This document shows, one piece after another, positions 13,979-59,961 of a DNA stretch of 64,000 nt. Both the position numbers and the translations under genes were made by a program. Every line of letters begins with the position of its first letter. Position 1 is the stretch's first letter. Below the pieces are notes generated by a model that searched no databases, was not told the DNA's origin, and worked only from the letters and a program-made list of their open reading frames with translations. The DNA comes from a bacterium. GTDB lineage: Bacteria > Bdellovibrionota > FAC87 > UBA2466. The stretch is taken from the NCBI GenBank assembly GCA_009927045.1, contig RFNT01000062.1, positions 3,971-67,970 on the forward strand. Reading direction: 5' to 3'.

Positions 13979-14277
13979 TCACAAAGCGCTCTCAAATGTT
14001 CAAATGTATAAAAACCGGAATCATGACCATCGCTCCACTCTACCTTCAAAGCATAGCGCCCCACCGACTCGATACGTTTCGGCTGTATGTCTGCGGGTAC
14101 CATCTCGTCTTTCAGCAACTCTTCTCGGGTCCATTCATCCACACACACTGCACACCGGCATTTCAAGCGAAGAGTGCGCACATTGAACAAACTTTGATGC
14201 CCGTCATTCCAAACAATCCCTAAATGCTTAGGTCCGACTTGCTTCAACTCTAAGGGCGCTAAACTCATCACTGCCAT
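13954..14277 (-). CDS. DUF971 family protein (gamma-butyrobetaine hydroxylase-like N-terminal domain)
   Basis: 'CRCAVCVDEWT' and 'CECPLC' Cys motifs; a small protein, commonly found next to Mrp/ApbC. Confidence 0.7.
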   Translation of the reverse strand: MAVMSLAPLELKQVGPKHLGIVWNDGHQSLFNVRTLRLKCRCAVCVDEWTREELLKDEMVPADIQPKRIESVGRYALKVEWSDGHDSGFYTFEHLRALCECPLCKTR

Positions 14278-28831: not shown

Positions 28832-28836
28832 AGCAC

Positions 28837-30550: not shown

Positions 30551-31593
30551 CTCAGTGGCTGTTTCACATGGCTTTTTGGGGATTTTTGCCCCTTCTAGGA
30601 ACTAGCCTCTACTTCGTATTCAAAAGAAAGAGTGAACAGGATTCTCTTTTGGTGCGCATGCCGGGTCCTTGGAGTGAACTCAAGCAACTGATGCGTCGGA
30701 CTCGCTGGGCATTTAGACTTTTGTTCCTTTTACAAATTCTCGCTCTTTCGCTCATGGTGATTGCTCTAGCGCGTCCGATTCGGACCAAAACGCTCATCAA
30801 CAAATCTACTGAGGGCGTTGATATCGCGATTGTTCTCGATGTATCTGAAAGCATGGATGCTGAAGACCTCACTCCCAGCCGGATCCTTGCGGCAAAACAA
30901 GTGATTCGTCAGTTCATAAATCAAAGGCCCAATGATCGTATCGGTTTGGTTGTTTTCGGAGGGGAATCTGTCATGAAGTCGCCTCTCACCCGAGATTTTC
31001 CATTTTTGCTCCAACAAGTAGATAATATTAAGCTGAGAGAACTCAAACAGGGTACAGCTATTGGTTTAGGAATCACAAATGGACTTTCCCGTCTTCGCAA
31101 AAGCCAATCAAAAAACAAACTCATCATTCTTTTGACGGATGGAGACAGCAATGTCGGTTCCGTTAATCCGATGACTGCAGCTAAACTAGCTGCTCAAGAG
31201 GGAATAAAAATTTACACAATTGGAATTGGACAGGAAGATAGAGTGGTAGTTCCTATCTATTCTTATGACTCTCAAGGACAAAAGATGCATTTGATTGCTC
31301 AAGTACCTTCCTACCTGAATCCTCAGCTACTAAAAGAGATTTCGCAACTCACGGGTGGAAAGAGCTACATGGCTCGCGATTCGGGCATGTTGTCCAGAGT
31401 GCTTCAAGAAATCGACAAACTGGAAAAAACCAAAGTGAAGATATCGGCCACGCCCGAGACAGAGGAGTTGTTTTTATATCCAGCTATTCTGGCAACAGTA
31501 CTTATGGCGATTCTCTTTTTATTATCTGAAACTCGATTTCAAAGACGGCTCAAGGAACCATTACGACATGAACTATCAGCTCGCGCAACCTGA
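30547..31593 (+). CDS. batA: BatA-type vWA domain membrane protein
   Basis: N-terminal TM helices followed by the vWA MIDAS motif 'VLDVSESMDAEDLTPSRILAAKQVI'. Confidence 0.8.
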   Translation: MTQWLFHMAFWGFLPLLGTSLYFVFKRKSEQDSLLVRMPGPWSELKQLMRRTRWAFRLLFLLQILALSLMVIALARPIRTKTLINKSTEGVDIAIVLDVSESMDAEDLTPSRILAAKQVIRQFINQRPNDRIGLVVFGGESVMKSPLTRDFPFLLQQVDNIKLRELKQGTAIGLGITNGLSRLRKSQSKNKLIILLTDGDSNVGSVNPMTAAKLAAQEGIKIYTIGIGQEDRVVVPIYSYDSQGQKMHLIAQVPSYLNPQLLKEISQLTGGKSYMARDSGMLSRVLQEIDKLEKTKVKISATPETEELFLYPAILATVLMAILFLLSETRFQRRLKEPLRHELSARAT

Positions 31594-33112
31594 GGCGCTT
31601 TGGGGGTTCATTCCCTTACTTTGCCTCATGATTTATTGGTTATGGAAGAGAAAGCATCGCCCAACTCTATTTTCATGGCGAAGATTTTGGTGTGGAACTC
31701 TGGGTTTCTTTTTTGCTATTTTAGGCCTAGCACGCCCGCAAAGTGGGTCACTTACAGGTATGCCCGAACCCGTTGCTGCCAATCTCATTCTCGCTGTCGA
31801 TATCTCAAACAGCATGCTAGCGGAGGATATTACCCCCAGTCGTTTAGGATTTGCTTCCGCCTTCATCCAACATATCACCGAATCCATGGTTAAACCCCGA
31901 GTAGCGTTGTTTCCATTTGCTGCTTCAGGCTTTCTCCAACTCCCCCTAACAACAGATATCTTTGCCCTCCAGGAATCACTTTCTGCTTTGGAACCCACTG
32001 CAACTTCACACCAAGGAACAGACTATAATGAAATGCTCACCGGCTTGATTTCCAATATCAACCAATTGGAGCAGCAGGCTCAAAATCAACTTGAGGGATG
32101 GCATACGCCCAGAGTCCTGGTCTTTTCAGATGGTGAACCCCAAACTCCTTTGGATGAAACTTTGTTGAAACCGTTCATCGCAAAAAAGATTCCCATTTTC
32201 ACCGTTGGTGTTGGAACTACCGAGGGCAGCACTATCCCAGTAGCAAGCCCCTTCGGAAAGCGAGAGACTCTGAAGGATCCTCACTCGGGACAAACTGTGA
32301 TTACTCGCTTAGATGCTCAACCCTTGCAGGCGATGGCACTTCAAACGGGAGGTGCTTATTTTTCGGCCTCCTATAAGAACATTCCAACTCTGATATCTCA
32401 ACTCAATCAATCTCTGGCTCTTGGAAGAAGAAATTCTCAATTTAAGGTTCAGCAGGAATTGTTTCCGTTCTTTTTGGCTCTGAGTATCCTTTTTTTCTTC
32501 ATCGAGTTTTGCTCCGGTCGTTGGCAGTTTGTAATCCGTGCTCTTATTTTCGTTTTGTTTTGCGGAACTTGGAATCCGGCTCATGCAGAGGACGATCAAA
32601 CCCGCGCGATTGAGGCCTATAATCAAGGGCTCAAAGAAATGTCGCAGGGCAATCTCAACAAAGCTGCTGAACTCTTCGAAGAGAGCACACTCATCTTCCA
32701 AGACAACTCAGATCGGAAGAAAGCACTCTACAATCTAGGAAATACATTTCTCAAAATGGGAGATCCTGAACAAGCTCTTGAGAGCTATCAGAAAGCCTTC
32801 AGAACAGAGGCACGCTCAACAGAATTAGAGAACACTGCTAATCAACGCATTTCAGATAATATGGCATTGGCTGCTCAATTGGTCGAAATGATGAAAAAAC
32901 AGCAGAAGAACCAACCAGGAAATGATGACAAAGACGGCACTAGCGATCCAGGTCAAGACCCCAAGGGCCCGCAACAATTTCAAGGTGAGGCTTTGAATGA
33001 GAGCCAAAAGAAAAAACTCTACGACCTGATTGCAAGCGAAGAAAAAGAAACCCTAAAGCGAATTCGAGAAAAAAACAAAGCCCCCAATTCATCTAACGGT
33101 AAGCCATGGTAA
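31568..33112 (+). CDS. batB: BatB-type vWA domain protein with C-terminal TPR region (BatB/BatC fusion-like)
   Basis: 'LAVDISNSMLAEDITPSRL' vWA motif and C-terminal TPR repeats 'AIEAYNQGLKEMSQGNLNKAAELFEES...'. Confidence 0.8.
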   Translation: MNYQLAQPEALWGFIPLLCLMIYWLWKRKHRPTLFSWRRFWCGTLGFFFAILGLARPQSGSLTGMPEPVAANLILAVDISNSMLAEDITPSRLGFASAFIQHITESMVKPRVALFPFAASGFLQLPLTTDIFALQESLSALEPTATSHQGTDYNEMLTGLISNINQLEQQAQNQLEGWHTPRVLVFSDGEPQTPLDETLLKPFIAKKIPIFTVGVGTTEGSTIPVASPFGKRETLKDPHSGQTVITRLDAQPLQAMALQTGGAYFSASYKNIPTLISQLNQSLALGRRNSQFKVQQELFPFFLALSILFFFIEFCSGRWQFVIRALIFVLFCGTWNPAHAEDDQTRAIEAYNQGLKEMSQGNLNKAAELFEESTLIFQDNSDRKKALYNLGNTFLKMGDPEQALESYQKAFRTEARSTELENTANQRISDNMALAAQLVEMMKKQQKNQPGNDDKDGTSDPGQDPKGPQQFQGEALNESQKKKLYDLIASEEKETLKRIREKNKAPNSSNGKPW

Positions 33113-34362
33113 AAAAGATCTCGATTTCATTTTCGTTTTTTTTAGCAGCTGTCTGCATGGCCGATTCTTTGGAATTTCGCCTTCAGCTTTCCAAACCCAC
33201 TTTTTTCGAGGGAGAAAAAGTGACTGCTACTTTTCTCCTTGAGGCAGATAAAGAAAATGTGATTGAAGTCGAAGTGATCAAATTCCCTGAATTTCGTGGC
33301 TTCTGGAGTGAAAACCTCATGCTCCGACAAGGGCCTATCCACCTCACACCTACCGCTCAGAAGGGGAAATTCGTAGCTGTTATTGGTTCCTATGCTATTC
33401 AGTCCATTTTGGAATACAAAAGCGCTGAAGTCCGACCGATGAAGCTTTTGATCAAAGGCCTCACTCCAGAACCATTCACGTTGGAATCTGTCAGTGTTCC
33501 TAATAGAATTTTATCTCTTCCCCCGATCCCCCCTGCTCTACAAAAAGTTCCCTTTTCAGGAGGTGTTGGTAACTTCGCTCTCTCCGTAGATAACCCGCAA
33601 GTCGTTTTTAGAAAGGGCGAACCTTTTAAGATACGAATCACATTGAGCGGGGAAGGCAACTTTTCTGAAATCAATACGCTTCCTATCCGCCCGCCTGCTG
33701 ACTTCACAACGGTCTCCCAAAATTCATTTCAAGATGCTTTTTTGGGCAGAAGCAGAAAGTTTTTTGATTGGGTTTTCAGTACAGAATCCGATACTGTTCG
33801 ATCTTGGAAAATAGGAAGCTTCTTATTTTTTGATCCCCAATCGAGCCGATATCACGAATTGGAATTACCTGAAATTCAATTTTCCCGTCTGGAGGAGCCT
33901 AGTTTACCGGAGAATCTCCTCCGGAAACAAGCCATCGCATTTGAACCAAAATCAACCTGGTCTAATGGATCCTCTCATTCAATTCTGATAAGCACTTGGA
34001 AAGTGACTTGGGCACTAGCCCTTGCAGCTCTCAGTTGGATTATCTTTTTTCAGCAGAAAATGTTTCGCATCACCCGAGCAGCCGATCCCAAGCGGTGGTG
34101 GAGGGCTCAGAAGAAAAAAGTAGAACACGCTCTCCAAAAGCAGGATTGGTCGACGTTTGTTCCTCTTGCGGCTCAGCTGGTCAGAAAGCATCTATCTGAG
34201 CGAGGATCGCTCCCTGAGAAAGGCCATTTGCTTTTGGAAGCCGATCATCAATTGCGCTTCAGTCCTGACAAAAAACTTCAGCTGTCCCCGGAAATGCTCC
34301 TTCAGATCTGGAGTGAAGTGGCACAAGACCTCGGCGCAAGTTCCCAGGATCCCTCTAAATAA
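33106..34362 (+). CDS. BatD-like oxygen-tolerance protein
   Basis: Signal peptide, a large extracytoplasmic domain, one TM helix 'WALALAALSWIIFF' and a cytoplasmic tail. Its position after batB supports the call. Confidence 0.55.
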   Translation: MVKKISISFSFFLAAVCMADSLEFRLQLSKPTFFEGEKVTATFLLEADKENVIEVEVIKFPEFRGFWSENLMLRQGPIHLTPTAQKGKFVAVIGSYAIQSILEYKSAEVRPMKLLIKGLTPEPFTLESVSVPNRILSLPPIPPALQKVPFSGGVGNFALSVDNPQVVFRKGEPFKIRITLSGEGNFSEINTLPIRPPADFTTVSQNSFQDAFLGRSRKFFDWVFSTESDTVRSWKIGSFLFFDPQSSRYHELELPEIQFSRLEEPSLPENLLRKQAIAFEPKSTWSNGSSHSILISTWKVTWALALAALSWIIFFQQKMFRITRAADPKRWWRAQKKKVEHALQKQDWSTFVPLAAQLVRKHLSERGSLPEKGHLLLEADHQLRFSPDKKLQLSPEMLLQIWSEVAQDLGASSQDPSK

Positions 34363-37282: not shown

Positions 37283-37383
37283 TGCGCAACCTTTTGACTC
37301 ATAAATGAGAATCTAAAATAAAGAGTTTAGCATAATTATCCGAAAACTAGAGAGTGAACCTGAACTCTTGTCGAGGTTTCGTT

Positions 37384-38514
37384 ATGGCACATTTTATGAA
37401 GCTGTTCTTTTTAATCATCAGTTTTTCTTGCATAGGCTTTGCGAAAACTGAACTCACCATCAAAAAATTTCGCTTTATACATCACAACGATTCTAAATTT
37501 GAACGAATGGTCATCGAGTTTTCAGGACCATCAGTGAATGTTCCTGTAGAAATCAAAACAAATAAAGCAACGAGTCGGGAACGCGACCTCTCCCTCAGTA
37601 TGTCCGACGTTCAACTCGTGGGAGCCATACCGGAAAGTGAGATCAATGAAAGTTTTCAAACCAAAAGAGAATGGAGTGGACCACTCTCTTTTGTAGTAGA
37701 CACGCCTAAAAATGGGTTCAGTATCCGCACTCTGCTCAAAGGGAATGAGAAAGAACTGGACGCTTTTTGGCTTTCAGAACCCACACGCTTGGTGATTGAT
37801 GTTTACCCTAAAACTTCTCCCCGAGCAGGCAATCGGGAAGCCTTGAAGGTTTCTCGTGCTGTGGCTTCTGTAAAAGATGGAAACGCAAAGATGTCCCCTA
37901 AGAAAAAAGCACACTCGCTCTCCGATTCCATTTTTTGTTTTCCAGCAAATTCTCAGCTGGATGCTGCCATTGCTTTTGAACCTTATAAGGGCACCAGCGC
38001 TGTAAAAGTGGATGTTGCAAAACCGGGTGAACCCCTCTCAGATAAGCAAAAAGAAGGCATCGTTTGTTACCCTGCTCACACTCGGGTTCATCCTCAAGTC
38101 AGTTTTGATCCCTCAATGCAAAAAGCGCCTTCTGAAATGGCAAGTCCCGAACCGGTAGCTCAAGCTCCTGTTCCAGCACCTTCTCAGTCTTTATTTGGCT
38201 CTAAGTTGCTGCCAGTGCTTCCTCCTGTGGGTCCAGTAAAATCCGAAGATCAGGAAAAAGCATCCGCACCTGCAGCTGGGGGAGCTCCCGCTGCTGTACC
38301 CAGTTTACTTCCCAGTACCCTCATCCCTGCTCTTCCCAATACTTCCGGAAACGCAGGCACGGCGGACTCTCGAGTCCCAGCGAGTGCTTCAGTGCGATCT
38401 CAGCAATTCAATCCCAAAGTGGATAATAATGCACCGGCTTCACTCGGAGCTTCATTTGATAGAGCGAATAAGGGCGCTGCAAATCCCGCACAGCTTTTAC
38501 CGCCTTTTAAATAG
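37384..38514 (+). CDS. AMIN-domain-containing secreted protein with Pro/Ala-rich C-terminus
   Basis: Signal peptide 'MAHFMKLFFLIISFSCIGFA', an N-terminal AMIN-like domain (..RMVIEFSGP...LVIDVYP) and low-complexity PVPAPS repeats. Confidence 0.45.
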   Translation: MAHFMKLFFLIISFSCIGFAKTELTIKKFRFIHHNDSKFERMVIEFSGPSVNVPVEIKTNKATSRERDLSLSMSDVQLVGAIPESEINESFQTKREWSGPLSFVVDTPKNGFSIRTLLKGNEKELDAFWLSEPTRLVIDVYPKTSPRAGNREALKVSRAVASVKDGNAKMSPKKKAHSLSDSIFCFPANSQLDAAIAFEPYKGTSAVKVDVAKPGEPLSDKQKEGIVCYPAHTRVHPQVSFDPSMQKAPSEMASPEPVAQAPVPAPSQSLFGSKLLPVLPPVGPVKSEDQEKASAPAAGGAPAAVPSLLPSTLIPALPNTSGNAGTADSRVPASASVRSQQFNPKVDNNAPASLGASFDRANKGAANPAQLLPPFK

Positions 38515-44255: not shown

Positions 44256-44957
44256 TCAGTTGAAAAGCGGAAGCGCAAACCACGAGAGGAGAATGGCAGA
44301 ACCCACTGGGATTGTGAAATTGTCATCGATAGGACTGGGGATCAGTTCCACCACTGTGCTGACAGCTCCCCCGAGAAGCCCCAAAACAAGCGCTTGAGGG
44401 AGTTCCAAAGAGAGATATCCCAGAGCAAAGCTCACTGAAATCAGAGCAGTTGTTACAAAATTAGCAGCGGCCCCTTCTAACGTTTTTCGTGAAGTGAGTC
44501 GAATGCGACCCCAGTGAGTCCCCACAACAGCAGCTACTGGGTCCCCAACAGCTAAAAATAAAGCACTTAATAAAACAATCGGCTTTGGAAAAAAATAAAC
44601 TAACACCAGGAGCCCTAAAATATAGAAGGAATTACCAGAGACACTCTGCAGCTCTTCACGCCGCATGAGACTTCCAAAGGCTTTCAAAATGAGTCCGTTC
44701 AATCGAGGAGACTTCAATCGCACAATGTCTAAAAGCATGAAGATGCCTCCCACGGTTCCTAATAATACGAGGGCGGCTTCTCGAGAGAGAAAGAAGGCAT
44801 ACAGGGAGACACAAAGAATCCCCATCATAAAATGGTAAAATTTACGTCCTAAATGAGGCGTGGAACGCCCCACATTCAACACTTCTTGTTTGAGTGCAGA
44901 AATCTCAGCTGCCGATACGAAAGAAAGAGTTTTGAACATGATCCTTAGATACAGCAA
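44256..44957 (-). CDS. Polyprenol/phytol/dolichol-kinase-like CTP-dependent membrane protein (COG0170 / DUF92-like)
   Basis: Six or more TM helices and a 'SRKTLEGAAANFV' CTP-transferase-like motif. Confidence 0.5.
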   Translation of the reverse strand: MLYLRIMFKTLSFVSAAEISALKQEVLNVGRSTPHLGRKFYHFMMGILCVSLYAFFLSREAALVLLGTVGGIFMLLDIVRLKSPRLNGLILKAFGSLMRREELQSVSGNSFYILGLLVLVYFFPKPIVLLSALFLAVGDPVAAVVGTHWGRIRLTSRKTLEGAAANFVTTALISVSFALGYLSLELPQALVLGLLGGAVSTVVELIPSPIDDNFTIPVGSAILLSWFALPLFN

Positions 44958-45108: not shown

Positions 45109-45834
45109 TTACTTTTTTATATCGTTCTTTGCTCGTTGACCCATGGGGTGGGAAGGATACCGTTCGATGAGATCTTGAAAGAACAATCGGGATTCTTTCT
45201 GTTGTCCCAAATGTTTGAAAGCCCAAGCCTGGCGATAAATCGCTGTCGGGACCAAACTATCTTTAGGATATTTTTTTCGAAATTGAGCAAATTCTAAAGC
45301 CGCCGAAGCGTACTCTTTTGATGAGAAGAGCACTTCTCCAATCAGAAAATTAACTTTCTTGGCTTGCTCACTGTTTTTAGAGGAGCGTTTCTCAACTTCT
45401 CGAAGGACTTCTAATGCTTCTTCAAATTTGCCTTCGTCATACAATAATTTTCCTTGCTCGTAAGATACCGCGGAATTGGATTCGACTGACGGACTGGGTT
45501 GCTTCAGTGCCAGCTCTTCAGCCACTGCTCGTTGCTCCAGCGCTTGAATCCGAGTTTGAAGGGTCAGAACTTGATTTCGTAAATCCTCAGCAATTGACCG
45601 ATGCGATTCGGTTTGTTCCTCATTTACGCTTTTTAAACGAGCTACTTCAGTTTTGAGCTCCTCAACGGTCGTATCTACGTCCGCTTTGAGATCTCGCGCT
45701 TCTTTCACTTCTGTTTTCAAACGTTCCATTTCTTGTTCGCGTCGAATTTCACCTTTGGTCTTACATCCGCTGAGAAATCCTCCACAGATGACTAACGATA
45801 AAACTACTAAATTTTTCTTGTTGAGGTTTCTCAT
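45109..45834 (-). CDS. ybgF: Tol-Pal system protein YbgF/CpoB (coiled-coil + TPR lipoprotein)
   Basis: Lipobox 'LSGC', a long coiled-coil, and C-terminal TPR repeats 'YRQAWAFKHLGQQKESRLFFQDLIERYP'. It lies downstream of pal. Confidence 0.7.
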   Translation of the reverse strand: MRNLNKKNLVVLSLVICGGFLSGCKTKGEIRREQEMERLKTEVKEARDLKADVDTTVEELKTEVARLKSVNEEQTESHRSIAEDLRNQVLTLQTRIQALEQRAVAEELALKQPSPSVESNSAVSYEQGKLLYDEGKFEEALEVLREVEKRSSKNSEQAKKVNFLIGEVLFSSKEYASAALEFAQFRKKYPKDSLVPTAIYRQAWAFKHLGQQKESRLFFQDLIERYPSHPMGQRAKNDIKK

Positions 45835-46190
45835 GGATTAGCCTCCTCCTCTGGGATAGGTGCAGAAAAGCTCGGTGCCGATTCCGGCTCTACGAATCCA
45901 CCTTTGAGCTCAGTTTGTTTAGCCACTGATTGATACTCCGCTTGTTCCGCAATCTGTCTGGCTTCGTGAGCAAATTTCTTGGCTGATTCATAGTACCCCT
46001 CGGTGAAGTCCTTTTTTGCTCTGAGATACAAGTTTTCAGCTCTTCGGTAGGTATCCGGGGCAAGTACTTCTGCTTTAACTTTTTGCGCTGCTTTCAACGC
46101 AACATCTGCCAAAATCATGTCTTCGATGGGTCGGGGGTGACAAGCACTGATCACCCCCACGAACAATAAAATGATTCCAACAGAACGCAT
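45831..46190 (-). CDS. DUF4398-like lipoprotein
   Basis: Lipobox 'ISAC' and a helical domain 'YRRAENLYLRAKKDFTEGYYESAKKFAHEA'. Confidence 0.5.
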   Translation of the reverse strand: MRSVGIILLFVGVISACHPRPIEDMILADVALKAAQKVKAEVLAPDTYRRAENLYLRAKKDFTEGYYESAKKFAHEARQIAEQAEYQSVAKQTELKGGFVEPESAPSFSAPIPEEEANP

Positions 46191-46193
46191 TCC

Positions 46194-46730
46194 TTATTTG
46201 GAGAGCAATACAAACACAGCTCGGCGATTTTTTGCCCAAGCTGCTTCGTTATGTCCTAAATCTGCAGGACGCTCTTTGCCGTAACTGAGCGTTTCAATAC
46301 GGGAGGCGGCTACTCCCAAGCGAACTAAGTAGGCTTTCGCAGCATTGGCCCGTCGATCTCCAAGGGCCATATTGTACTCAACCGTGCCCCGCTCATCGCA
46401 ATGACCTTCAATTTGAATCCGCGCATTGGCATTTGCTTTCATCCAATCCGCATTCGTCTTGAGGGCGTTTCTAGCTTGATCCGTTAAATTGTAACTGTCG
46501 TACCCATAATAAACTGTTTCCATTTCGCTGAAAGGCTGTCCAGCATCTCCAGCGCCTCCCAGAGATTCCACACCCGCTCCTGGACTAGCAACGCCCGAGG
46601 AATCCTCCGATAAATTCATAGCGGGTTCGTCAGAAACCACATCTTTTTTACTACAACTCACCATGCCGAACACGAATACCAACATGACAATTTGGCTGAG
46701 TGGGGATCGAAGACTTCTTAAAACAGACAT
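46194..46730 (-). CDS. pal: Peptidoglycan-associated lipoprotein Pal (OmpA family)
   Basis: Lipobox 'VSC' and an OmpA-like domain 'TVYYGYDSYNLTD...IEGHCDERGTVEYNMALGDRRA'. Confidence 0.85.
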   Translation of the reverse strand: MSVLRSLRSPLSQIVMLVFVFGMVSCSKKDVVSDEPAMNLSEDSSGVASPGAGVESLGGAGDAGQPFSEMETVYYGYDSYNLTDQARNALKTNADWMKANANARIQIEGHCDERGTVEYNMALGDRRANAAKAYLVRLGVAASRIETLSYGKERPADLGHNEAAWAKNRRAVFVLLSK

Positions 46731-46898
46731 AAGGCTGCTCCTTCACGATGAAATAGGTTAAAAACACCTATACGGTAGCGAAATTCAACGTAAGATACAA
46801 TTATTTTTCAGCTTTATCCGAAGCAGGCCCCTCACCCTGACGGGGCGCGCCAACCGCTTTTCAATCCCGTTCAAACTTCTCATTGATACAATATCTCC

Positions 46899-49742
46899 AT
46901 GCGAATTTTCTTTTGGGGACTGTTGCTGTGCAGTTGGCTTCACGCAGAACCCACTTACTTATCTTTTCCCTCTGATGTTTCCTGGAAAACTCAAACGAGT
47001 TCTCATTTCCAAATTGTTTACCGAGAGGGACAAATTGACCTCGCATCACGCGCTCTGAAAGCCGCAGAGAAAGCCTTCGCCCTTTTAACTCCTATTTTTC
47101 CGGAACGCCCTCCCCTCACTTTTATCGTGTTGGCTGATTTTCAGGATTCTCTCAACGGTTACTCTTTGAATTTTCCTTATCCCCACTTTGTCGTTTTTGC
47201 AGCGCCACCCAACAGCACCGGAGAGCTTGCAGCTCTGGATCATTGGTTAGATTCAGTTGTTTTACACGAATACGTTCACACCCTGCACATGTATCCAGCA
47301 ACTGGTGCTTGGAAATGGATTCGCACCATTTTTGGAAGCTGGGTCGTGCCAAACGGTATGCAGCCTCAGCATCTGCACGAGGGACTGGCCACATTTTTAG
47401 AAACTGAATTCAGTCGAGGGGGCCGTGGGCGCAGCTCCTTTTTCCAAATGCTCAGTCGCAAAGCTGTGGAAAACCAAGTCTGGGGTGATGATTTTGTTCC
47501 TTTGGATTTAATTGATGGCTCTGCTAGTCGGTGGCCTCACGGCACCAGTGCTTATTTTTTTGGTTACTACTTCTACCGCCACCTATGGAGCGAAAAACAA
47601 CATCAGGGGATCACGAATCTTGTCCAGAGCGGGAGTAGCAATTGGCCTTATTGGATCAATATTCCCTTCCAAGAGGTCTATCAGCAATCTGCGCCTACTC
47701 TTTGGAAAGCAATGTTTGATTCTGTGAGAGCGGAAAAAAAAGAGGAATTGAAAAAGATTCAAGCAGAACCTCTTTCTCAGTTGACTTACTTCACTCAATC
47801 TCGGTTTCAAAAGAAAGACTTGGCGTTATCTCCAGAAAAAAAGCGAGTGGCTTTCCTGAGCCATTCTCCAACGGCCGGAACCCAATTAGAAATTTTTAAC
47901 CTAGGGTCCAAAACCTATGAAAAGAAACTCCGGGTTGACGCCAGTGATGCCGGTGGCTTGTGTTGGATTGATTCCAAATCCAAGGGAGAATATTTTTTAT
48001 TTTCGGTTCGGAAGTTTGAACGGTTTCAATCTCGCAATCGGCTCGCTCTTGTTAAATCAGACTCCGAAGACCCCAATTTTCTCAAAACATCCGATGGCTG
48101 GCTCGACCACGTTCACGAAATCAGCTGTTCTCCCGATGGAAAAAACCTTCTGCTGTATCAAGAAGTAGGGGGGAAAGGTCGGCTCGGTGTTTTTGAGGGT
48201 GATGCTCTCAGCGAGAACAGCAACTTTCGACTTCAAACCTTTTGGGATTTGCCTCCAGGCACCTGGATCAGCGCTTTATCCTGGGGAAGCCCCGCCTATT
48301 TTTTACTCCGCTCCGGGCATCAGACCGTTTTTTATCGATGGGATTTCGCGAGCGCACCAGAAGCCATGGGACAAATTGACGGACATGCCTACCGTCTCAA
48401 GAGAGGAGATAAAGACACTAGCTACTTGATCAGTGGCCTTTCGGGTCGAGACGAAATCTGGCAATGGGATCTCAGCAAGAAACAACTTTCGAAAGCGGTG
48501 AGTGCAACGGGAGGGTTCAATAGCTTTGAAGTGCTGCCAGAAACTGCCCTTGTTTCCTCCTACGAGCATGGGGGTTACGATTTAGCGTCAGCCACTTTTG
48601 TGGTGTCCAAGCAGAACCGGCTTTTAGCTCCCCCCACAGCGATCCAGAATTTCCCCAAAGCTGAAGCTGAGAATACAAAAGAAGAAGACTACTCCCCTTG
48701 GAGCACGCTCATCCCTAGAACTTGGATTCCTTCGGCTCTGATTGTCCCTTTTGGGCTTCAGGTAGGCGCTTGGATCCCCATGTTCGATCTGACCCAACGC
48801 CACTTTTACGACATCAACTTGGGATTTGACCGAAGAGACAGCAATACAGGAACCCGAGTTCTGCCATTTTTTTCACTGTTGTACGGGTATCGTTTTGGGC
48901 AAAGCTCAGTAGCGCAATTGAATACTTATTTTTTACCCGGTTTTTTAACCTTCAACCGGAGTTTCTTTCAGCGGTGGGGGACTTCTTTCAGCTATGGAAG
49001 AGAAATTCCAGGTTCGCCAATTCAAGGACGGCTTTCGAGTATTTTTCGTCGAGTTGAGCAGTCTACGCTAGGGCCTGCGAATCAATCCATGGGACTCGGG
49101 CTCGAATTGGCTTGGGCCAACCAACAGACCACAGGTGTTTTGGATGCTCCTCTCAATCGAGGCATTCGTTTGAGTGCAAGTCATCAGCAATTTATGAAAG
49201 CTTTAGGAAGCCAAGATAACTTCTTTAGCTCGCTCGCAAGTTTTGAAGGAATGGCGAAGTCACCGATCTGGGAAAAGGCTTCATGGCACTTAACCCTGCG
49301 GCAGGGGTATACCGAAGGCACCCCGCTCTACAATTCATTTTTCGAGGGTGGAGGGGAGTTGATTTTTTCTCAAGGACGAGGATTTTTTCTCAATAGAGGT
49401 TATTTACAGGGCTCTTTTGCAGCACGCCGAATTTTCGGAGGAAATTTAGAGTTTCAGTTTCCGATTTCCCGACTGGATCGAGGTTGGAATTTATGGCCGG
49501 TTTTTTTGCAAACGCTTTCAGGAGCCTTGGTCTTGGACACTACCAGTTACGACTTTGGACCTCTGAGCCGAGCATCGAAACTCTGGATGAAAGAATTTTT
49601 GTGGAGCACCGGCTTCGAAATAAAATCTCAATGGCGCTTTTTTTATTATTTACCCACAGAAGTTCGCTTGGGGTTTTACCGGGGTTTAAGCCGCGGAGGC
49701 GAACCTTTTTACTTCACGCTGGGTGTAGAAGCAGCTCTCTAA
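46899..49742 (+). CDS. Large secreted/outer-membrane protein with an N-terminal HExxH zincin-like module, TolB-like beta-propeller repeats and a C-terminal beta-barrel-like region
   Basis: Signal peptide, then 'VVLHEYVHTLHM...HLHEGLATFLE' (HExxH plus a downstream Glu), then PD40-like 'SPDGKNLLLYQ'. The C-terminal approximately 330 aa show alternating hydrophobicity. Confidence 0.45.
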   Translation: MRIFFWGLLLCSWLHAEPTYLSFPSDVSWKTQTSSHFQIVYREGQIDLASRALKAAEKAFALLTPIFPERPPLTFIVLADFQDSLNGYSLNFPYPHFVVFAAPPNSTGELAALDHWLDSVVLHEYVHTLHMYPATGAWKWIRTIFGSWVVPNGMQPQHLHEGLATFLETEFSRGGRGRSSFFQMLSRKAVENQVWGDDFVPLDLIDGSASRWPHGTSAYFFGYYFYRHLWSEKQHQGITNLVQSGSSNWPYWINIPFQEVYQQSAPTLWKAMFDSVRAEKKEELKKIQAEPLSQLTYFTQSRFQKKDLALSPEKKRVAFLSHSPTAGTQLEIFNLGSKTYEKKLRVDASDAGGLCWIDSKSKGEYFLFSVRKFERFQSRNRLALVKSDSEDPNFLKTSDGWLDHVHEISCSPDGKNLLLYQEVGGKGRLGVFEGDALSENSNFRLQTFWDLPPGTWISALSWGSPAYFLLRSGHQTVFYRWDFASAPEAMGQIDGHAYRLKRGDKDTSYLISGLSGRDEIWQWDLSKKQLSKAVSATGGFNSFEVLPETALVSSYEHGGYDLASATFVVSKQNRLLAPPTAIQNFPKAEAENTKEEDYSPWSTLIPRTWIPSALIVPFGLQVGAWIPMFDLTQRHFYDINLGFDRRDSNTGTRVLPFFSLLYGYRFGQSSVAQLNTYFLPGFLTFNRSFFQRWGTSFSYGREIPGSPIQGRLSSIFRRVEQSTLGPANQSMGLGLELAWANQQTTGVLDAPLNRGIRLSASHQQFMKALGSQDNFFSSLASFEGMAKSPIWEKASWHLTLRQGYTEGTPLYNSFFEGGGELIFSQGRGFFLNRGYLQGSFAARRIFGGNLEFQFPISRLDRGWNLWPVFLQTLSGALVLDTTSYDFGPLSRASKLWMKEFLWSTGFEIKSQWRFFYYLPTEVRLGFYRGLSRGGEPFYFTLGVEAAL

Positions 49743-49743
49743 G

Positions 49744-51207
49744 CTACTCCGTTTTTGTCTCGTTGAGAGGAGCTCTGACTTCTTTGACTCCTTGAGACAC
49801 CTTCTCGAAAATGTTCCAGGCTTTCAAATAACTGAATGCTTGTTGTAGTTGGAAATCAAGTTTGATCAATTCTTTTGGATCTTCAATACGCACTTTCTTT
49901 CCATTTTTCTCTTTAATCACACCAAAAAGTCGGTCTTGATTCTTACTGTCTTTTTCGTTCTTCTCTGTGCTTTGAGGACTGCGCTCTTCGGCCTTGCTCT
50001 CATTTTCACCCACTAAGTGATTTTCTAAGTCCGCTTCTTTCAGGAACTTACCTTCCCGAGCTTTTTCAAGAAGAGCCATATCGACTCGATCCACTTCGAT
50101 ATCTGGAACGATTCCTTTACCTTGAATCGAAATTCCATTGGGAGTGTAGTACCGAGCTACAGTGAGTTTTAGAGCGGATTTGTTTTCCAAATCAATCACC
50201 GTTTGTACGGACCCTTTACCAAAAGTGGGTTTCCCTACCACCAAACCCCGCTTGTGATCTTGAAGAGCACCGGCCACAATTTCTGAGGCGCTGGCGCTGG
50301 CTTCATTGACTAAAACAACGAGTTTTAAATTCTTAAAAGGAGCAGCACCCCGAGCGTACTCTACTTCCTTCTTCGCTTTGCTTCGGCCCATCGTGGAAAC
50401 AACCGGAACCTTCTCTAAAAAGAGACTCGACACATTGATCGCTTCTTCTAAGAGTCCACCTGGATTGTTTCTAAAGTCGAGAACAGCACCCATGAGTGGC
50501 TTTCCGTTATCTTTTGCCAGCTGCTCGAGCTTCTTTTTCACATCTCGCGATGTGCTGCTTTGAAATTGAACAATTCGAATCCAAGCATAATCTTTATCCA
50601 GAAGTCCGCCTTTAACAGCTGCTACTTTAATAATGTCACGAGTGATCTCAATGGGTTTAAGGCCTTGCACGCCTTTTCTCGCGACGTGAATAGTGACTTT
50701 AGTACCTTTTTCCCCTCGCATCAGATTCACAGCTTCTTGCAAGCTTAAATTTTTTGTTTCTTTTTTGAGGTTCTTGGCTTTGTCTTCAATCAGAATAATT
50801 TTGTCGCCTGGTTCTACACCCGCTAAAAACGCCGGAGTATCTTCGATGGGGGTCACAACGGTTAAATAGCCGTCATTGACATTGATTTCGATACCCAAGC
50901 CTCCAAATTTTCCCTGAGTGTCCACTTGCATTTCTTTGAACATTTCTGGAGAAAGATAAACCGTGTGAGGATCTAAAGTAGCCAACATCCCTTTGATGGC
51001 ACCTTCCATCAGTTTCTTGGTGTCTACTTCTTCCACATAGTTGGTTTGGACGAAGTGGAGAATTTTGGTGAATAAATCTAAATACTGATAATTGGGAGCT
51101 GCTTGACTCAAACTGTAGATACCGGCTCCGACTGTGAGCCCCGCTCCAATAAATACTGCTAGGAAAAATACGATGACCGGACGTGCTTTGAATTTCATGA
51201 GACGCAA
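49744..51207 (-). CDS. ctpA: Carboxy-terminal processing protease (S41 family, CtpA/Prc)
   Basis: PDZ 'GYLTVVTPIEDTPAFLAGVEPGDKIILIE' followed by the S41 catalytic region 'GAVLDFRNNPGG...'. Confidence 0.85.
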   Translation of the reverse strand: MRLMKFKARPVIVFFLAVFIGAGLTVGAGIYSLSQAAPNYQYLDLFTKILHFVQTNYVEEVDTKKLMEGAIKGMLATLDPHTVYLSPEMFKEMQVDTQGKFGGLGIEINVNDGYLTVVTPIEDTPAFLAGVEPGDKIILIEDKAKNLKKETKNLSLQEAVNLMRGEKGTKVTIHVARKGVQGLKPIEITRDIIKVAAVKGGLLDKDYAWIRIVQFQSSTSRDVKKKLEQLAKDNGKPLMGAVLDFRNNPGGLLEEAINVSSLFLEKVPVVSTMGRSKAKKEVEYARGAAPFKNLKLVVLVNEASASASEIVAGALQDHKRGLVVGKPTFGKGSVQTVIDLENKSALKLTVARYYTPNGISIQGKGIVPDIEVDRVDMALLEKAREGKFLKEADLENHLVGENESKAEERSPQSTEKNEKDSKNQDRLFGVIKEKNGKKVRIEDPKELIKLDFQLQQAFSYLKAWNIFEKVSQGVKEVRAPLNETKTE

Positions 51208-51337
51208 CTCCTTGATACTCCCCTATCGGTACTTTGGAAGCATTTCCTAAACGGCTTGAAGGGCTGGAATTGTGAAGTTTTCTTCACATTGTTGCACAGC
51301 TCTAGCAACCCAAATTGACGCGATGTATAATATCGGA

Positions 51338-53200
51338 ATGGGGTCGCTCCAAACGGTTCGCAATACTCGAGGCCAAGTGGCCATTTTATTTGCCCTCGTG
51401 TTTACTTTTTTGTTCGTGCTCTTTGCTTTCGTCGTTGATTTCGGTCATCTCATTCAAAATAAAATGAACTTACAAATTGCGGCCGATGCAGCAGCTTATG
51501 CAGGAGCTGCTTGGCAAGCTCGAGCGCTCAATCAAATGGGTGCTGTGAACTATCACATGCGACAAGACTACAAAGAAATGGTCATGCGCATGCAAGTGAC
51601 TCACACGCGACACAACTTGAACTTTCCTAGAACACGAGGGGATCTTTCCGGACCCATTGAAAGATTGCCCCAAGGTTACTCCAGCCCCATGGTTTGCCAA
51701 CAAGCTCACGGTTTTGAAACCGTCCGCGGTAGACGGTACGCCAATAATACGAACTTGTGTCGAAATGCGGATCCTCGCAGTGGGGGTTTGCCTCCCATCG
51801 TGGTTCCCCCCGTGCTCGCTCCGTTCGACCCGTTCTCCGTTGCAATCGCTCGCCAGATTCAGGAAATTCAAAGACAAGCAGATATCGAGTGTGACCAGGG
51901 TAAAGAGGACAATGAACGCTTAGTGAATCACATGATTTCTGTTTTTGGTCGCCCCATCGGACAACCTCAGTGGGGTCTTCGTCCGGCGTTTCATCAGCAG
52001 CAAATGGAAAGTTTAGAGACTTATATTAATTCAGCGGCTCAGGAAGATGCTCAAACTAGCTCCCACCCGATGTTAGTCGCTGCACGAGAATCCGCCCGTA
52101 AAAACCTCACAGAAAGTAATAAAGGCGATTTCAAATTTGAGCTTTTAGCTCCAGAGGGTTCGGAGTTTGTGAACATCAATCCCATCATTGCTGCTAACGT
52201 AGCCCTTTATTTTGATTTTCAAAGTCGTGGCAGCGCGTGCGTTGCTTTGATTGGCCAAAAGTTTTTTGAATCTCTAGTAGGTTATGAAAAGGACCCTCGC
52301 ATTTTGACTTACTTTGGAGTGAAGCTCACTTCCAAACCCCAAATGCTCTTCATGCCACAAGCTTGGCTAGATGCCGGCTTTCCCACTTTAGAGGCTTATG
52401 CGTTAGCAAAGCCTTTTGGGAGTCGGATTGGCCCTCAGGCGACAACCGATGCTTTGATAGCAGTTCCCAGAAGCAATCAACAAAGCAGATTGCTCGATTA
52501 TAGCGTGGTTCCTTTTAATCAAACCGCCGGAGGCGGCAGAAGTGCTAAATTACTTGCCTATTTCGATTCACTCCACCCAAGAAACGAAATCGGGAATCCC
52601 CAAGGGAATCGAAATAGCGGATGGCCAGAACCTTTTAAGAATGATCAACTCAGAGCTCCTCTTCAAGCAGTGCGGGCGCCGACTATTTTTGATGCGCTTT
52701 TTTACACGGTTTTTCCAGATCCAGGGAGCAACCTCAATGATGATTACTTAGAACCTCAATTCGCCGAAGCCCTCTATCCCGATAACGTAGAGGCTGCAGG
52801 TCCTAACAATCAGATCATTTCTCAAAGCAGAAAACCAGCCACCACCAGTTATTTAGAAATGAAAGTGAACGCAGCAGACGGCCTGAATGGACCTCACTAT
52901 GATAATTACGCTTCTGAACACCCCGGCACCCATTCCACTACAGGCCCTTTGAGTTTGCCCGGACTCTCGGATCCCAACACAGCAAAAGCTTTTGGGTTTG
53001 CTACCAAAGAGGTCTATCACAGTGCCTGGGCTCCTGAGGGCGATGTAGAGTTTGGTAGGGGCCGAATTGGCTACGGAGTAAAATATTTGAGTATTGATAC
53101 TTTGATGGAGCGTTTGGAAAACCGAACGGGTTCGGGAGAACGCATTGAAATTGAAAACAAACCCCGCTTTGAGCCCAACCTAAGAGCCATTAAGCACTAG
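51338..53200 (+). CDS. TadE/TadG-like pilus-assembly (Flp/Tad pseudopilin-like) protein, large
   Basis: N-terminal 'RGQVAILFALVFTFLFVLFAFVVDFGHLIQNKMNLQIAADAAAYAGA' is the Tad-like motif. I chose the internal start 'MGSLQTV'. Confidence 0.55.
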   Translation: MGSLQTVRNTRGQVAILFALVFTFLFVLFAFVVDFGHLIQNKMNLQIAADAAAYAGAAWQARALNQMGAVNYHMRQDYKEMVMRMQVTHTRHNLNFPRTRGDLSGPIERLPQGYSSPMVCQQAHGFETVRGRRYANNTNLCRNADPRSGGLPPIVVPPVLAPFDPFSVAIARQIQEIQRQADIECDQGKEDNERLVNHMISVFGRPIGQPQWGLRPAFHQQQMESLETYINSAAQEDAQTSSHPMLVAARESARKNLTESNKGDFKFELLAPEGSEFVNINPIIAANVALYFDFQSRGSACVALIGQKFFESLVGYEKDPRILTYFGVKLTSKPQMLFMPQAWLDAGFPTLEAYALAKPFGSRIGPQATTDALIAVPRSNQQSRLLDYSVVPFNQTAGGGRSAKLLAYFDSLHPRNEIGNPQGNRNSGWPEPFKNDQLRAPLQAVRAPTIFDALFYTVFPDPGSNLNDDYLEPQFAEALYPDNVEAAGPNNQIISQSRKPATTSYLEMKVNAADGLNGPHYDNYASEHPGTHSTTGPLSLPGLSDPNTAKAFGFATKEVYHSAWAPEGDVEFGRGRIGYGVKYLSIDTLMERLENRTGSGERIEIENKPRFEPNLRAIKH

Positions 53201-55053: not shown

Positions 55054-56397
55054 TTGATACTTGTGACGCGTTGTGGTATAACCACCTCCGTGAAACTCAT
55101 TTTTTCAATAGCACTGGGCCTCTGGGGCGGAACCTTTGGTTGGGGGGCTTCACAAGCCCACACCTACGGCTTAGATGCTTCGAGTGTTGGACGGGCAGGC
55201 TCGGTTACAACTGAAGCCTCCAATCCCCATGCAGCTCTTTATAACCCGGCTTTGCTCGGTACCGTCTCCGAAAGTACCCTCGCATTCTCCACGCTCATTA
55301 CACAAGTTTCCGTGAACCCGATTGGCCCCGTTGTTTTACCAGAATCCCAAAGAAACTCAGAAGACCCCGTTTCCGGCACAGTGGCGATGCCCCGGCTTTC
55401 TCAAACTCGCTGGTCGCTGGGTCTGACGATTCCAGTCACTTTGAAAAAACTGTCCCGCAAAGTTGGCTTTGGATTTTCTGCATCTGGTCCTTACGAAAAA
55501 TTGCGTAGCTTCAATGCTTATGCCCCAGATGATTTTTATTCCGCTCGGTACGGAACTGCAGATGGCCAATTGAAGGGGACCACAAGCTTGGGAATAGAGC
55601 TCATCTCCAATCACTTGTTTTTTGGAGCTGGCTTATCTCTTTTCCTCAGTGGCGCAGGCACGGCAGAAACGACGCTTTCAGACAACCCCACTAGTCGCAT
55701 GAATTTAGATGTGGTTCTGCAAAGCGCTCCCGTAGTGGGCCTTTATGGCCAGTGGGACGCTTTCGCTTCAGCGCTGACTTATCATCAATCGATCCACCCT
55801 CAACTGGAACAAGCCATGAAAGCTCGAATTCAAATTCTAAAAAACACGAGTATTCAGCAACCCCTTTTCATGAAAGGCTCTTTGTACTACGAGCCAGAAA
55901 TGCTGGAGTGGGAAGTTCAGAATCAGTGGAATCGATGGCTTGTCTCCGCCGGGCTTTCGTATCAACTTTGGAACCGGTATCAAGCGCCGATTCTCATCAC
56001 AGAAACACAAGATGCAGAAGGCACTCGTTATCAAACTCAAGATACTCAGGTCAGTGCCCAGAACACGTGGAATCCTCGCTGTTCTTTGAGCTATGAGTTT
56101 TCCCGATCTTGGTCGACTTCTCTGGGATATCAGTTTCGCCCAACGCCTTTCACCAATCTTTCAGGTTCCTCTAATCTCTTAGATTCTAATACCCACATCC
56201 TGGGGGCTTCCATTCGCACCCAATGGGTTGAAAACGGTCTTTTTGAGGGCCCCTTGGGCTTAGGAGTCTTTGGTCAATACCATCACTTCGAGAAAAGAAC
56301 CTTCTCCAAAACGGATGCCACTCGTGCCGGCTATCCCGAAGTCCACTTCTCGGGAAATGCTTTCCTAGTGGGGGTTTCCGCAGAAGTGCCACTCTAG
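55054..56397 (+). CDS. Outer-membrane beta-barrel protein, FadL/TodX-like
   Basis: Signal peptide, then a FadL-like N-terminus 'GLDASSVGRAGSVTTEASNPHAALYNPALLG', and alternating beta-strand pattern throughout. Confidence 0.45.
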   Translation: MILVTRCGITTSVKLIFSIALGLWGGTFGWGASQAHTYGLDASSVGRAGSVTTEASNPHAALYNPALLGTVSESTLAFSTLITQVSVNPIGPVVLPESQRNSEDPVSGTVAMPRLSQTRWSLGLTIPVTLKKLSRKVGFGFSASGPYEKLRSFNAYAPDDFYSARYGTADGQLKGTTSLGIELISNHLFFGAGLSLFLSGAGTAETTLSDNPTSRMNLDVVLQSAPVVGLYGQWDAFASALTYHQSIHPQLEQAMKARIQILKNTSIQQPLFMKGSLYYEPEMLEWEVQNQWNRWLVSAGLSYQLWNRYQAPILITETQDAEGTRYQTQDTQVSAQNTWNPRCSLSYEFSRSWSTSLGYQFRPTPFTNLSGSSNLLDSNTHILGASIRTQWVENGLFEGPLGLGVFGQYHHFEKRTFSKTDATRAGYPEVHFSGNAFLVGVSAEVPL

Positions 56398-59265: not shown

Positions 59266-59961
59266 ATGAAAACCTTCTTCGCACTCTCCTGTTTCATCTT
59301 CACAGGCCTTGCCCTCTCCGATGCGGGCCTCCATGAAAAAACAACTTCAAAGCTTCCTTCGAATGTCTTAAAAAAGGCATCGCGTCCCCTAGCCAATGAC
59401 GCATTTGATCTCGAAGGCATTCCACTCACTGCGGCGGAAGTGATGCAAGGCGATTGGGCCCCAGATGAAGAAGGCGGGTGTGATCTCGTAAAAGGCTGCG
59501 CCTATAAAAATAAAAAAACGGGCGAAGTTCGCTATATATCAGAAGCAGAAAAAAAGAAGCTTGCGATAAAAAAAGAGGAGGCTTCACAAGAGGAATCTCC
59601 CTCCAAGTCTTCTGGCATCAAAGAACTCAAAGACCAAGGGACTTATGAAGCAGCTTTCACCAGCAGCACCGATAAAAAAGCACTCGTGATGGTTTTCAGC
59701 GCTGAGGACTGTCCTCCTTGTCGAGCTCTCAAATCAAAGCTGCAGAATGGGTCCTTTGAAGACCTCGCCATTTATACCGCTACACGGCCCAGCTATCGCT
59801 CAGTTTCAGGTCATCCCCTCCACGAGGATAAGAAAGCAGCACTCGGAGCCGGAGTCCCCGTTGCTTTTATCTATACAAAAGATGAAAACGGGAAGTGGCA
59901 GGGCAAAACTTTTCGTGGAAGCCAAATCTTTCCAGCTATCGAAGCGGTGAATTCTCCATAA
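59266..59961 (+). CDS. Secreted thioredoxin-like protein (CPPC motif)
   Basis: Signal peptide 'MKTFFALSCFIFTGLALS' and 'LVMVFSAEDCPPCRALKSKL'. AAGGAG lies 5 nt upstream of the ATG. Confidence 0.55.
   Translation: MKTFFALSCFIFTGLALSDAGLHEKTTSKLPSNVLKKASRPLANDAFDLEGIPLTAAEVMQGDWAPDEEGGCDLVKGCAYKNKKTGEVRYISEAEKKKLAIKKEEASQEESPSKSSGIKELKDQGTYEAAFTSSTDKKALVMVFSAEDCPPCRALKSKLQNGSFEDLAIYTATRPSYRSVSGHPLHEDKKAALGAGVPVAFIYTKDENGKWQGKTFRGSQIFPAIEAVNSP

Follow-up and report, generated by a model that had tools for sequence, protein, structure and literature searches.

A diverged member of the WD40-like Omp85 subfamily with a predicted zinc-peptidase domain, encoded divergently from pal in a Bdellovibrionota genome

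What is the long protein encoded back to back with pal in this genome, and does its position next to pal mean anything? The DNA analysed here, hereafter the window, comprises 64,000 nucleotides of contig RFNT01000062.1 (GenBank assembly GCA_009927045.1, Bdellovibrionota). A preliminary description, made from the sequence alone, had noticed in it a 947-residue protein that seemed to join a zincin motif, TolB-like repeats and a barrel-like C-terminal region. We find that this protein is a diverged member of the WD40-like Omp85 subfamily defined by Heinz and Lithgow, an assignment carried by its homologues and an AlphaFold2 model. The gene is real and has exactly the coordinates first given, 46899..49742 on the plus strand, with an ATG start and a stop codon at 49740-49742 in the window's list of open reading frames. 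Its product is 100% identical to NBV50002.1, a "hypothetical protein [bacterium]".

Direct scans with hidden Markov models returned no Pfam-A or NCBIfam family for the 947-residue protein at E≤1. A phmmer search against the PDB sequences gave noise only (TPP1/STN1 at E=0.5), and a profile of the protein's own clade matched nothing in the same set. Since the Pfam and NCBIfam scans were empty, we tested the domain reading through relatives and predicted structure. It is only there that the domain identities surface, as PD40, Omp85 and weak Peptidase_MA_2 matches in distant relatives and as folds in the model. The AlphaFold2 model covers the full length with a mean pLDDT (predicted local distance difference test) of 90.0 and a pTM (predicted template modelling score) of 0.90; its input was a 42-sequence alignment reaching down to 21% identity. 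In order, it contains a signal peptide, a gluzincin peptidase domain (residues 28-290), a six-bladed propeller (295-575), a linker and a 16-stranded Omp85 barrel (610-947). The three-part make-up first proposed, zincin, TolB-type propeller and outer-membrane barrel, is thus borne out by the model, the relatives and the conservation of motifs. Residues 1-16 (MRIFFWGLLLCSWLHA; 46899..46946, plus strand) form a predicted Sec signal peptide, judged by the hydrophobic N-terminus, and are followed by EP with no lipobox. In the 42-sequence alignment a hydrophobic N-terminus is present, with a sequence that is not conserved across all homologues, and residues 1-19 are disordered in the model (pLDDT <50).

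Conservation falls unevenly over these modules. Identity to distant members is 31% in the zincin domain, 16% in the propeller, 25% in the linker (residues 576-609) and 20% in the barrel, and the 26 invariant columns are distributed as 15, 1, 2 and 8, respectively. The N-terminal zincin domain is therefore the most conserved module, and the barrel is less so. The domain (46980..47768, plus strand) is assigned to the gluzincins, clan MA, by fold and motifs. It is modelled as an alpha/beta domain in which an N-terminal beta-sheet subdomain precedes a helical one, as in the thermolysin-like fold. The HEYVH zinc-binding and catalytic motif (H123, E124 and H127 in residues 123-127; 47265..47279, plus strand) lies on helix 116-131. 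Downstream, helix 157-170 carries the stretch EGLATFLE from E161 to E168 (47379..47402, plus strand), with E161, G162 and E168 invariant. We infer that E161, rather than E168, is likely the third zinc ligand. Across the 42 sequences, the invariant columns include H123, E124, H127, E161, G162, E168, G175 and R176, together with D80, N86, P104, P213, Y219 and G222. The HEYVH block is invariant in a second alignment as well.

The motif is just as regular across the wider family. An HExxH occurs in the N-terminal third of every full-length family protein (233/233), and an xEG motif follows at a nearly fixed distance, a single spacing value accounting for 178 of the 211 proteins matched by a strict regular expression. 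The 22 proteins missed by that expression differ only in the residue following "EG". When one genome per GTDB species was scanned, the HExxH block was picked automatically as the family's best-conserved stretch. Because invariance down to 21% identity and presence in all 233 proteins with nearly fixed xEG spacing far exceed chance, the HExxH is not incidental. The HEYVH...E motif that had been read as metalloprotease-like thus stands, on its invariance and on the gluzincin fold around it.

Which peptidase family the domain belongs to is less easily said. Its best structural match is endopeptidase family M30. Peptidase_MA_2 (PF13485) does not match the 947-residue protein, and distant relatives score 18-27 bits (best 27.1), below the gathering threshold of 32.4. 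Membership of the M1 aminopeptidases is ruled out by an HExxH-to-Glu spacing of about 33 residues and by the absence of the GxMEN-type Glu, so the domain is M1-like in fold only. A conserved upstream block, D80-x-x-D-x-x-N86-G, has a variable residue where the GxMEN Glu would stand. As far as could be tested, the zincin belongs to no named MEROPS family.

The propeller (47781..48623, plus strand) is modelled as 24 strands making six blades, and is a strongly diverged one of the PD40/TolB type. A profile of the whole family matches TolB crystal structures among the PDB sequences at E=1e-20 to 1e-22 and an S9 peptidase propeller at E=2e-23. We also fetched 86 loci encoding family members, 15 from the protein's own clade and 71 from other lineages; in 63 of these 86 loci the family gene contains a match to a TolB propeller fragment. 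Because of these profile and fragment matches, we consider the family propeller homologous to the PD40 propellers of TolB and of the S9 and tricorn peptidases. The same fragment matched none of the 15 own-clade loci and nothing in the window, and PD40 was detected in the clade as a weak match in 1 of 44 members. The propeller of this clade has lost detectable sequence similarity to TolB. Accordingly, the PD40/TolB-like repeats of the preliminary description hold for the fold and for the distant relatives, but not for detection in the protein itself, where the PD40 model PF07676 finds nothing at E≤1. The protein shares the six-bladed architecture with TolB, and its PD40 nature is known through relatives and fold; the closest six-bladed propeller by fold is not TolB. 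Two cysteines in adjacent blades, C355 and C410 (codons 47961-47963 and 48126-48128), are invariant in all 44 clade members and absent from distant relatives, a pattern that suggests a clade-specific disulfide.

A short linker of 34 residues (576-609; 48624..48725, plus strand), modelled with one short helix, separates the propeller from the barrel. The POTRA model PF07244 matched neither the 947-residue protein nor its relatives, and absence of POTRA is characteristic of the WD40-like Omp85 subfamily (PMC4104836). The remainder (610-947; 48726..49739, plus strand) is modelled as an Omp85-type beta-barrel with 16 long strands at residues 610-945. PF01103 (Omp85) does not match the protein at E≤1, while it does match 10 of 44 close relatives and the majority of the distant ones, and the whole-family profile finds BamA sequences at E=2e-5. 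In Omp85 proteins, a lid-lock forms between an (L/M)RG(W/Y) motif in extracellular loop 6 and the Asp of FxDxG in beta13 (PMC11358297). Both halves have counterparts here. N-R-G-Y at residues 832-835 (49392..49403, plus strand), between modelled beta11 and beta12, supplies the loop-6 arginine motif with R833 and G834 invariant, and the clade-invariant D880 (49536..49538, plus strand) stands in modelled strand beta13 within "VLDTT". Distant relatives have FVDAG or FADAG at that position.

How far does the family extend, and has it been described? A word-indexed search found 162 homologues. The protein's own clade holds about 67 clusters at 36-58% identity, nearly all un-annotated, after which similarity drops sharply to a tier whose members align over their full length at 22-28% identity (E down to 1e-57). 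Pfam domains of the distant relatives fall in the expected order: sub-threshold Peptidase_MA_2 (~163-253), PD40 repeats (~300-570) and the Omp85 barrel (~660-946). Searched exhaustively with HMMER, a set of 1.84 billion representatives yielded 3042 matches at E≤1e-3, 524 of them at E≤1e-30, nearly all 930-1000 residues long. The scan of one genome per GTDB species recovered at least 530 stretches encoding relatives. Their hosts are Bdellovibrionota, Zetaproteobacteria, Geobacterales, Desulfuromonadales, Myxococcota, Bradymonadales, Nitrospirota, Gallionellaceae, Nitrosomonadales, Acidiferrobacterales, other Gammaproteobacteria, Acidobacteriota and Aminicenantes. Labels on the nearest loci read Pseudobdellovibrionaceae, Bdellovibrionota or just "bacterium", which makes a Bdellovibrionota-type source most likely for the window. 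Public names of family members (P0066 at JGI, P0078 and P0110 at NCBI) are inconsistent. The one given to P0066, "predicted Fe-Mo cluster-binding NifX family protein", looks wrong; other names in use are "TolB family protein", "Tol biopolymer transport system component" and "BamA/TamA family outer membrane protein".

The preliminary description did not recognise the fusion as a described family, and here it does not stand. Heinz and Lithgow defined ten Omp85/TpsB subfamilies in 2014, one of them "WD40-like" (PMC4104836). Their Table S2 gives this subfamily PF01103 plus one to five PF07676 repeats, and their Table S3 lists the TolB structures 2ivz and 2w8b as best WD40 template, with M1 or collagenase structures (1z5h, 4kxd, 4fgm and 4ar1) as the "best aminopeptidase hit" (PMC4104836). 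The subfamily has since been summarised as having "divergent WD40 and peptidase domains" (PMC11358297), and in 2024 it and its sister Omp85 subfamilies were still called uncharacterised (PMC11116518). The 947-residue protein shows both defining features, a PD40/TolB-like propeller ahead of an Omp85 barrel, recognised through homology and fold, and an aminopeptidase- or collagenase-like N-terminal domain. It most probably also belongs to the same family as the "OMP-TolB-like" clade (exemplar A0A1F3SUA3; OMP, outer membrane protein) of a 2025 paper in Molecular Biology and Evolution, which offers a Bdellovibrionales exemplar as a possible model of TolB's ancestor (PMC12204202). That paper names the module beside the propeller "Rossmann-fold", and its main text mentions neither a zincin motif nor adjacency to pal. 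The "Metallo" subfamily of Heinz and Lithgow was also considered and set aside, as it is defined by the PF00149 metallophosphoesterase and not by a zincin. Descriptions of the family to date come from sequence. Two points are perhaps new, namely that the gluzincin catalytic set is conserved without exception and that, in Bdellovibrionota, the gene is stably paired with pal, DUF4398 and cpoB.

What might such a protein do? Taken together, our results make it probable, though far from certain, that it is an active zinc peptidase anchored in the outer membrane and facing the periplasm, with a part in the maintenance or processing of envelope proteins. The barrel would insert into the outer membrane and serve chiefly to anchor the protein there. 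As a 16-stranded Omp85 barrel has both its ends on the periplasmic side, the peptidase-propeller unit should hang from the periplasmic face of the outer membrane. By analogy with the Omp85 proteins that have been studied, that unit would then be periplasmic; in PlpD, an Omp85 protein with a non-POTRA enzyme domain, the enzyme domain has been placed in the periplasm by experiment (PMC11116518). The clade-invariant C355/C410 pair would be compatible with an oxidising compartment. With its catalytic residues intact throughout the family, the zincin domain may well be an active zinc peptidase, whether endo- or exopeptidase. The fast-evolving propeller could restrict or select access to the active site, either as a gate of the kind found in S9 and tricorn peptidases or by docking a partner. 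The likely role would lie at the outer membrane, in the proteolytic upkeep or processing of envelope proteins; in Bdellovibrionota it might involve co-regulation or joint action with Pal and CpoB.

Several points weigh against this outline. There is no significant Pfam, NCBIfam or PDB match, so the case rests on remote homology and predicted structure. The putative zinc site is assigned from conservation and helix placement, and peptidase activity, zinc binding, topology and substrate are likewise things that we infer throughout. Outside the Bdellovibrionota-type lineage no conserved neighbour hints at a pathway, and inside it the adjacency to pal may be inherited synteny without functional meaning. 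Finally, the lid-lock motifs are conserved, and the barrel may therefore do more than anchor.

The adjacency itself is clear. On the minus strand, pal (46194..46730) encodes a peptidoglycan-associated lipoprotein matched by TIGR02802 at 142.8 bits against a cut-off of 125.35, with an OmpA domain at E=1e-21. It is followed by a DUF4398 lipoprotein gene (45831..46190, minus strand; PF14346, E=5.8e-6) and a ybgF/cpoB-like gene for a lipoprotein with coiled coil and TPR (45109..45834, minus strand; TIGR02795, E=7.5e-17; NF053852, E=5e-13). Both scores of the last gene are below the curated cut-offs, and the NF053852 match is full-length. NF053852 is named "CpoB-like predatory vesicle lipoprotein (Bd0635)"; the CpoB of Bdellovibrio bacteriovorus is reported to be probably essential and to relocate into a vesicle deposited in prey (PMC10769870). 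These matches agree with the three minus-strand neighbours, divergent from the 947-residue gene, that had been named beforehand. The divergent intergenic region shared with pal measures 168 bp (46731..46898), as given by the reading-frame coordinates, and a similar short gap of 122-223 bp is found in loci L001, L002 and L004. A promoter and terminator consensus scan of the 168 bp returned nothing, including no sigma-70 consensus.

We asked how well the arrangement is kept among loci that group with the window's protein and have sufficient upstream flank. The divergent trio of pal, DUF4398 and TPR genes is present in all 13 such Bdellovibrionota-type loci (L001-L004, L007-L012 and L015-L017), which span 22-57% protein identity. 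By tblastn the cpoB-like gene is kept in 12 of the 13, and the thirteenth, L004, has a TPR gene at that position. In L004, from a Bdellovibrio sp. whose protein is 22% identical, tsaD, ksgA and smpB have switched to the opposite side of the locus, and the pairing with pal is kept. Elsewhere the picture is different: within the fetched flanks of the 71 other-lineage loci, no pal-like gene was found even at E≤1, and no canonical tolB. No neighbour is conserved family-wide; there is only synteny at the level of lineages, with an alpha/beta hydrolase in Myxococcota, DapB in Gallionellaceae and an epimerase in Nitrospirota. The alpha/beta hydrolase (Abhydrolase_1, S33 "serine aminopeptidase"-like) lies near the family gene on the same strand in six loci of Myxococcota and Bradymonadales (L026, L030, L031, L063, L081 and L086). 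In four of them it is directly upstream and in the other two downstream, at a median distance of about 72 bp. It is possible that this protein, also a hydrolase, is a lineage-specific operon partner.

Does the protein then stand in for TolB? The preliminary description had spoken of a tol-pal remnant with the 947-residue gene in the place of tolB. Pfam scans of most open reading frames of at least 130 residues found no tolQ, tolR, tolA or tolB in the window, and a six-frame tblastn of a genuine TolB propeller fragment against it had a best E of 5.7. However, the supplement of PMC12204202 classes B. bacteriovorus as a "split system" in which the tol locus (164672-171334) lies apart from pal and cpoB. 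A pal-cpoB locus without tolB is therefore the normal layout of the lineage and no decayed operon, and the N-terminal domain of the 947-residue protein is a peptidase and not the N-domain of TolB. The idea of a remnant is not supported. In B. bacteriovorus, Pal is Bd0633 and CpoB is Bd0635 (CpoB: PMC10769870). The literature on Bd0632 to Bd0638 gave only these two identities and nothing about the family member itself.

A functional version of the same idea deserves more attention. As a TolB analogue, or "proto-TolB", the protein would bind the neighbouring Pal through its propeller, modulate the binding of Pal to peptidoglycan or its mobility, and possibly cleave Pal or a tether, within a lineage-specific Pal-CpoB module. 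The pairing with pal-DUF4398-cpoB in 13 of 13 loci, surviving the rearrangement that separates L004 from the window, speaks for it, as do the homology of the wider family's propeller to that of TolB, the lack of tolB in the window and the proposal that the OMP-TolB-like clade, with its Bdellovibrionales exemplar, is ancestral to TolB (PMC12204202). Yet the link to pal is found in none of the 71 other-lineage loci, and the clade that sits beside pal is the very one whose loci (0/15) have no detectable TolB similarity. There is no TolB N-domain or TolA box, the N-terminal domain being a peptidase, and TolB is not the closest six-bladed propeller by fold. B. bacteriovorus, moreover, is listed with a tol locus elsewhere in its split system (PMC12204202), and a separate "TolB homologue" is discussed for it. 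We consider a TolB analogue unlikely.

An equally small chance, in our estimation, attaches to a role in outer-membrane protein assembly or insertion. Here the barrel would act like that of BamA or TamA and the propeller as a BamB-like scaffold, as Heinz and Lithgow suggested, with the zincin serving as a non-catalytic substrate binder or as a quality-control protease in the manner of BepA. POTRA domains, present in all characterised insertases and translocases of the superfamily, are missing, and the propeller has six PD40-type blades against the eight of BamB. Complete conservation of the catalytic residues speaks against a purely non-catalytic zincin, and conservation is lower in the barrel than in the zincin domain. 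We find it improbable to a slightly greater degree that the protein is a self-exported surface protease, whose Omp85 barrel would translocate the peptidase-propeller unit in a type V-like manner to degrade external proteins such as those of the prey envelope. The enzyme domain of PlpD stays in the periplasm, and the idea that a barrel, once folded, could export a folded 30-kDa domain has been judged implausible (PMC11116518); in the present case the cargo would be about 560 residues including a rigid propeller. There is no POTRA domain. Conservation extends to the lid-lock residues, by which Omp85 barrels are kept closed, and family members are common in lineages that are not predatory, for example Nitrospirota, Geobacterales, Gallionellaceae and Zetaproteobacteria. 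Practically no chance is left for an ordinary single-domain protein with a fortuitous HExxH, the outcome that the preliminary description had itself named as its refutation: the empty Pfam and NCBIfam scans would suit it, but the invariant motif, its presence in 233 of 233 proteins and the gluzincin fold refute it. We therefore retain the periplasm-facing, membrane-anchored peptidase as the working interpretation.

Further genes flank the locus or lie elsewhere in the window. An S41 C-terminal-processing peptidase (CtpB_N-like, PDZ, Peptidase_S41; 49744-51207, minus strand) converges on the 947-residue gene, the stop codons lying 1 bp apart. Among the closest relatives, 7 loci retain this tail-to-tail arrangement, at a median distance of 11 bp; in L001 the S41 gene is about 8 kb downstream, and in L004 and L012 it was not detected. 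This juxtaposition of two envelope proteases may or may not carry meaning. Beyond it lies the gene for a 642-residue protein (51272-53200, plus strand) with an N-terminal TadE/TadG-like pseudopilin segment of about 45 residues and a large un-annotated remainder, also kept downstream in the closest relatives. A pair of reading frames of 216 and 151 residues at 14.3-15.4 kb was considered as tolQ/tolR and rejected, as it is an Mrp/NUBPL-type ParA ATPase split over two frames (14271-15374, minus strand). The frame at 14727-15374 carries FeS_assembly_P and ParA profile positions 2-112, and that at 14271-14723 carries ParA positions 127-245. The split implies a frameshift or in-frame stop near 14723, and hence a pseudogene or an assembly error. 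A Bat/MoxR-type operon occupies 27785-34362 on the plus strand, with an AAA_3 MoxR ATPase (27785-28828), a VWA protein (30547-31590), a VWA and TPR protein (31568-33109) and a 418-residue protein with no Pfam match (33106-34359). Six open reading frames of 220-496 residues had no Pfam match at the thresholds used: 7137-8624, 5524-6183 and 44256-44957 on the minus strand and 37354-38511, 55054-56394 and 59266-59958 on the plus strand. The frame at 55054-56394 (447 residues) is syntenic with 18299-19606 of L002, which has no precomputed domain either.

What follows for the family at large? WD40-like/OMP-TolB-like Omp85 proteins are widespread, with more than 3000 representative clusters and at least 530 stretches in the collection of one genome per GTDB species. 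The whole Bdellovibrionota-type clade is nevertheless invisible to Pfam and NCBIfam and its members are named "hypothetical", an annotation that could be improved. Because constraint is strongest in the zincin, whose catalytic set shows full conservation, the family deserves study as an outer-membrane-tethered zinc peptidase and not merely as "TolB-like" or "BamA/BamB-like"; to judge from conservation, the zincin domain would be its functional core. The lineage-specific pairing with pal offers a genetically tractable test of an interaction with Pal, in the gene divergent from bd0633 of B. bacteriovorus HD100, and bears on the origin of TolB. There is a slim prospect that in Bdellovibrionota the peptidase-propeller protein is a working partner of the Pal-DUF4398-CpoB module, the propeller docking Pal, for example, and the zincin processing Pal or another tether between outer membrane and peptidoglycan. 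If that were true, it would be a living "proto-TolB" still coupled to Pal, the first genomic and functional support for the descent of TolB from an OMP-TolB-like ancestor (PMC12204202), and the CpoB (Bd0635) of B. bacteriovorus, probably essential and vesicle-forming (PMC10769870), would be part of this module too. Our results do not overturn current knowledge.

Set beside known systems, the protein is closest to the WD40-like Omp85 subfamily, with which it shares its layout: a PF01103 barrel after PF07676 repeats and no POTRA. Our own analysis arrived independently at the picture that the subfamily's TolB and M1/collagenase templates give. It differs in that the PD40 and Omp85 models mostly fail on the present clade (1/44 and 10/44) and altogether on the 947-residue protein, and in that this clade adjoins pal-DUF4398-cpoB, whereas WD40-like relatives in other lineages do not. 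What PMC12204202 calls a "Rossmann-fold" module is here clearly a gluzincin domain. TolB is a soluble periplasmic protein of about 430 residues encoded in a tolQRAB-pal cluster, whereas the present protein has 947 residues, is membrane-embedded by prediction and is encoded divergently from pal; the TolB_N domain matches neither it nor its relatives. BamA and TamA have POTRA domains, in place of which the present protein has peptidase and propeller, and its PF01103 score is nil. Propellers gate the S9 prolyl oligopeptidase, DPP-IV, acylaminoacyl peptidase and tricorn with its M1 factor F3; unlike the serine hydrolases among these, the present catalytic domain is a gluzincin, lies N-terminal to its propeller and is tethered to an outer-membrane barrel, and a gating role would apply to it by comparison. 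Among clan MA gluzincins (M30 hyicolysin and lugdulysin, M1 and the M9 collagenases), it stands apart by an HExxH-to-Glu distance of about 33, against 18 in M1. BepA is a soluble M48 protease that docks on BAM, the outer-membrane assembly machinery, and has a TPR domain, whereas the present protease is fused to an Omp85 barrel of its own and is a different type of zincin. PlpD ("type Vd") likewise combines an Omp85 barrel with an N-terminal hydrolytic enzyme; it has a patatin lipase and one POTRA where the present protein has a zinc peptidase and a propeller and no POTRA, and its periplasmic enzyme domain provides the precedent for the topology proposed here.

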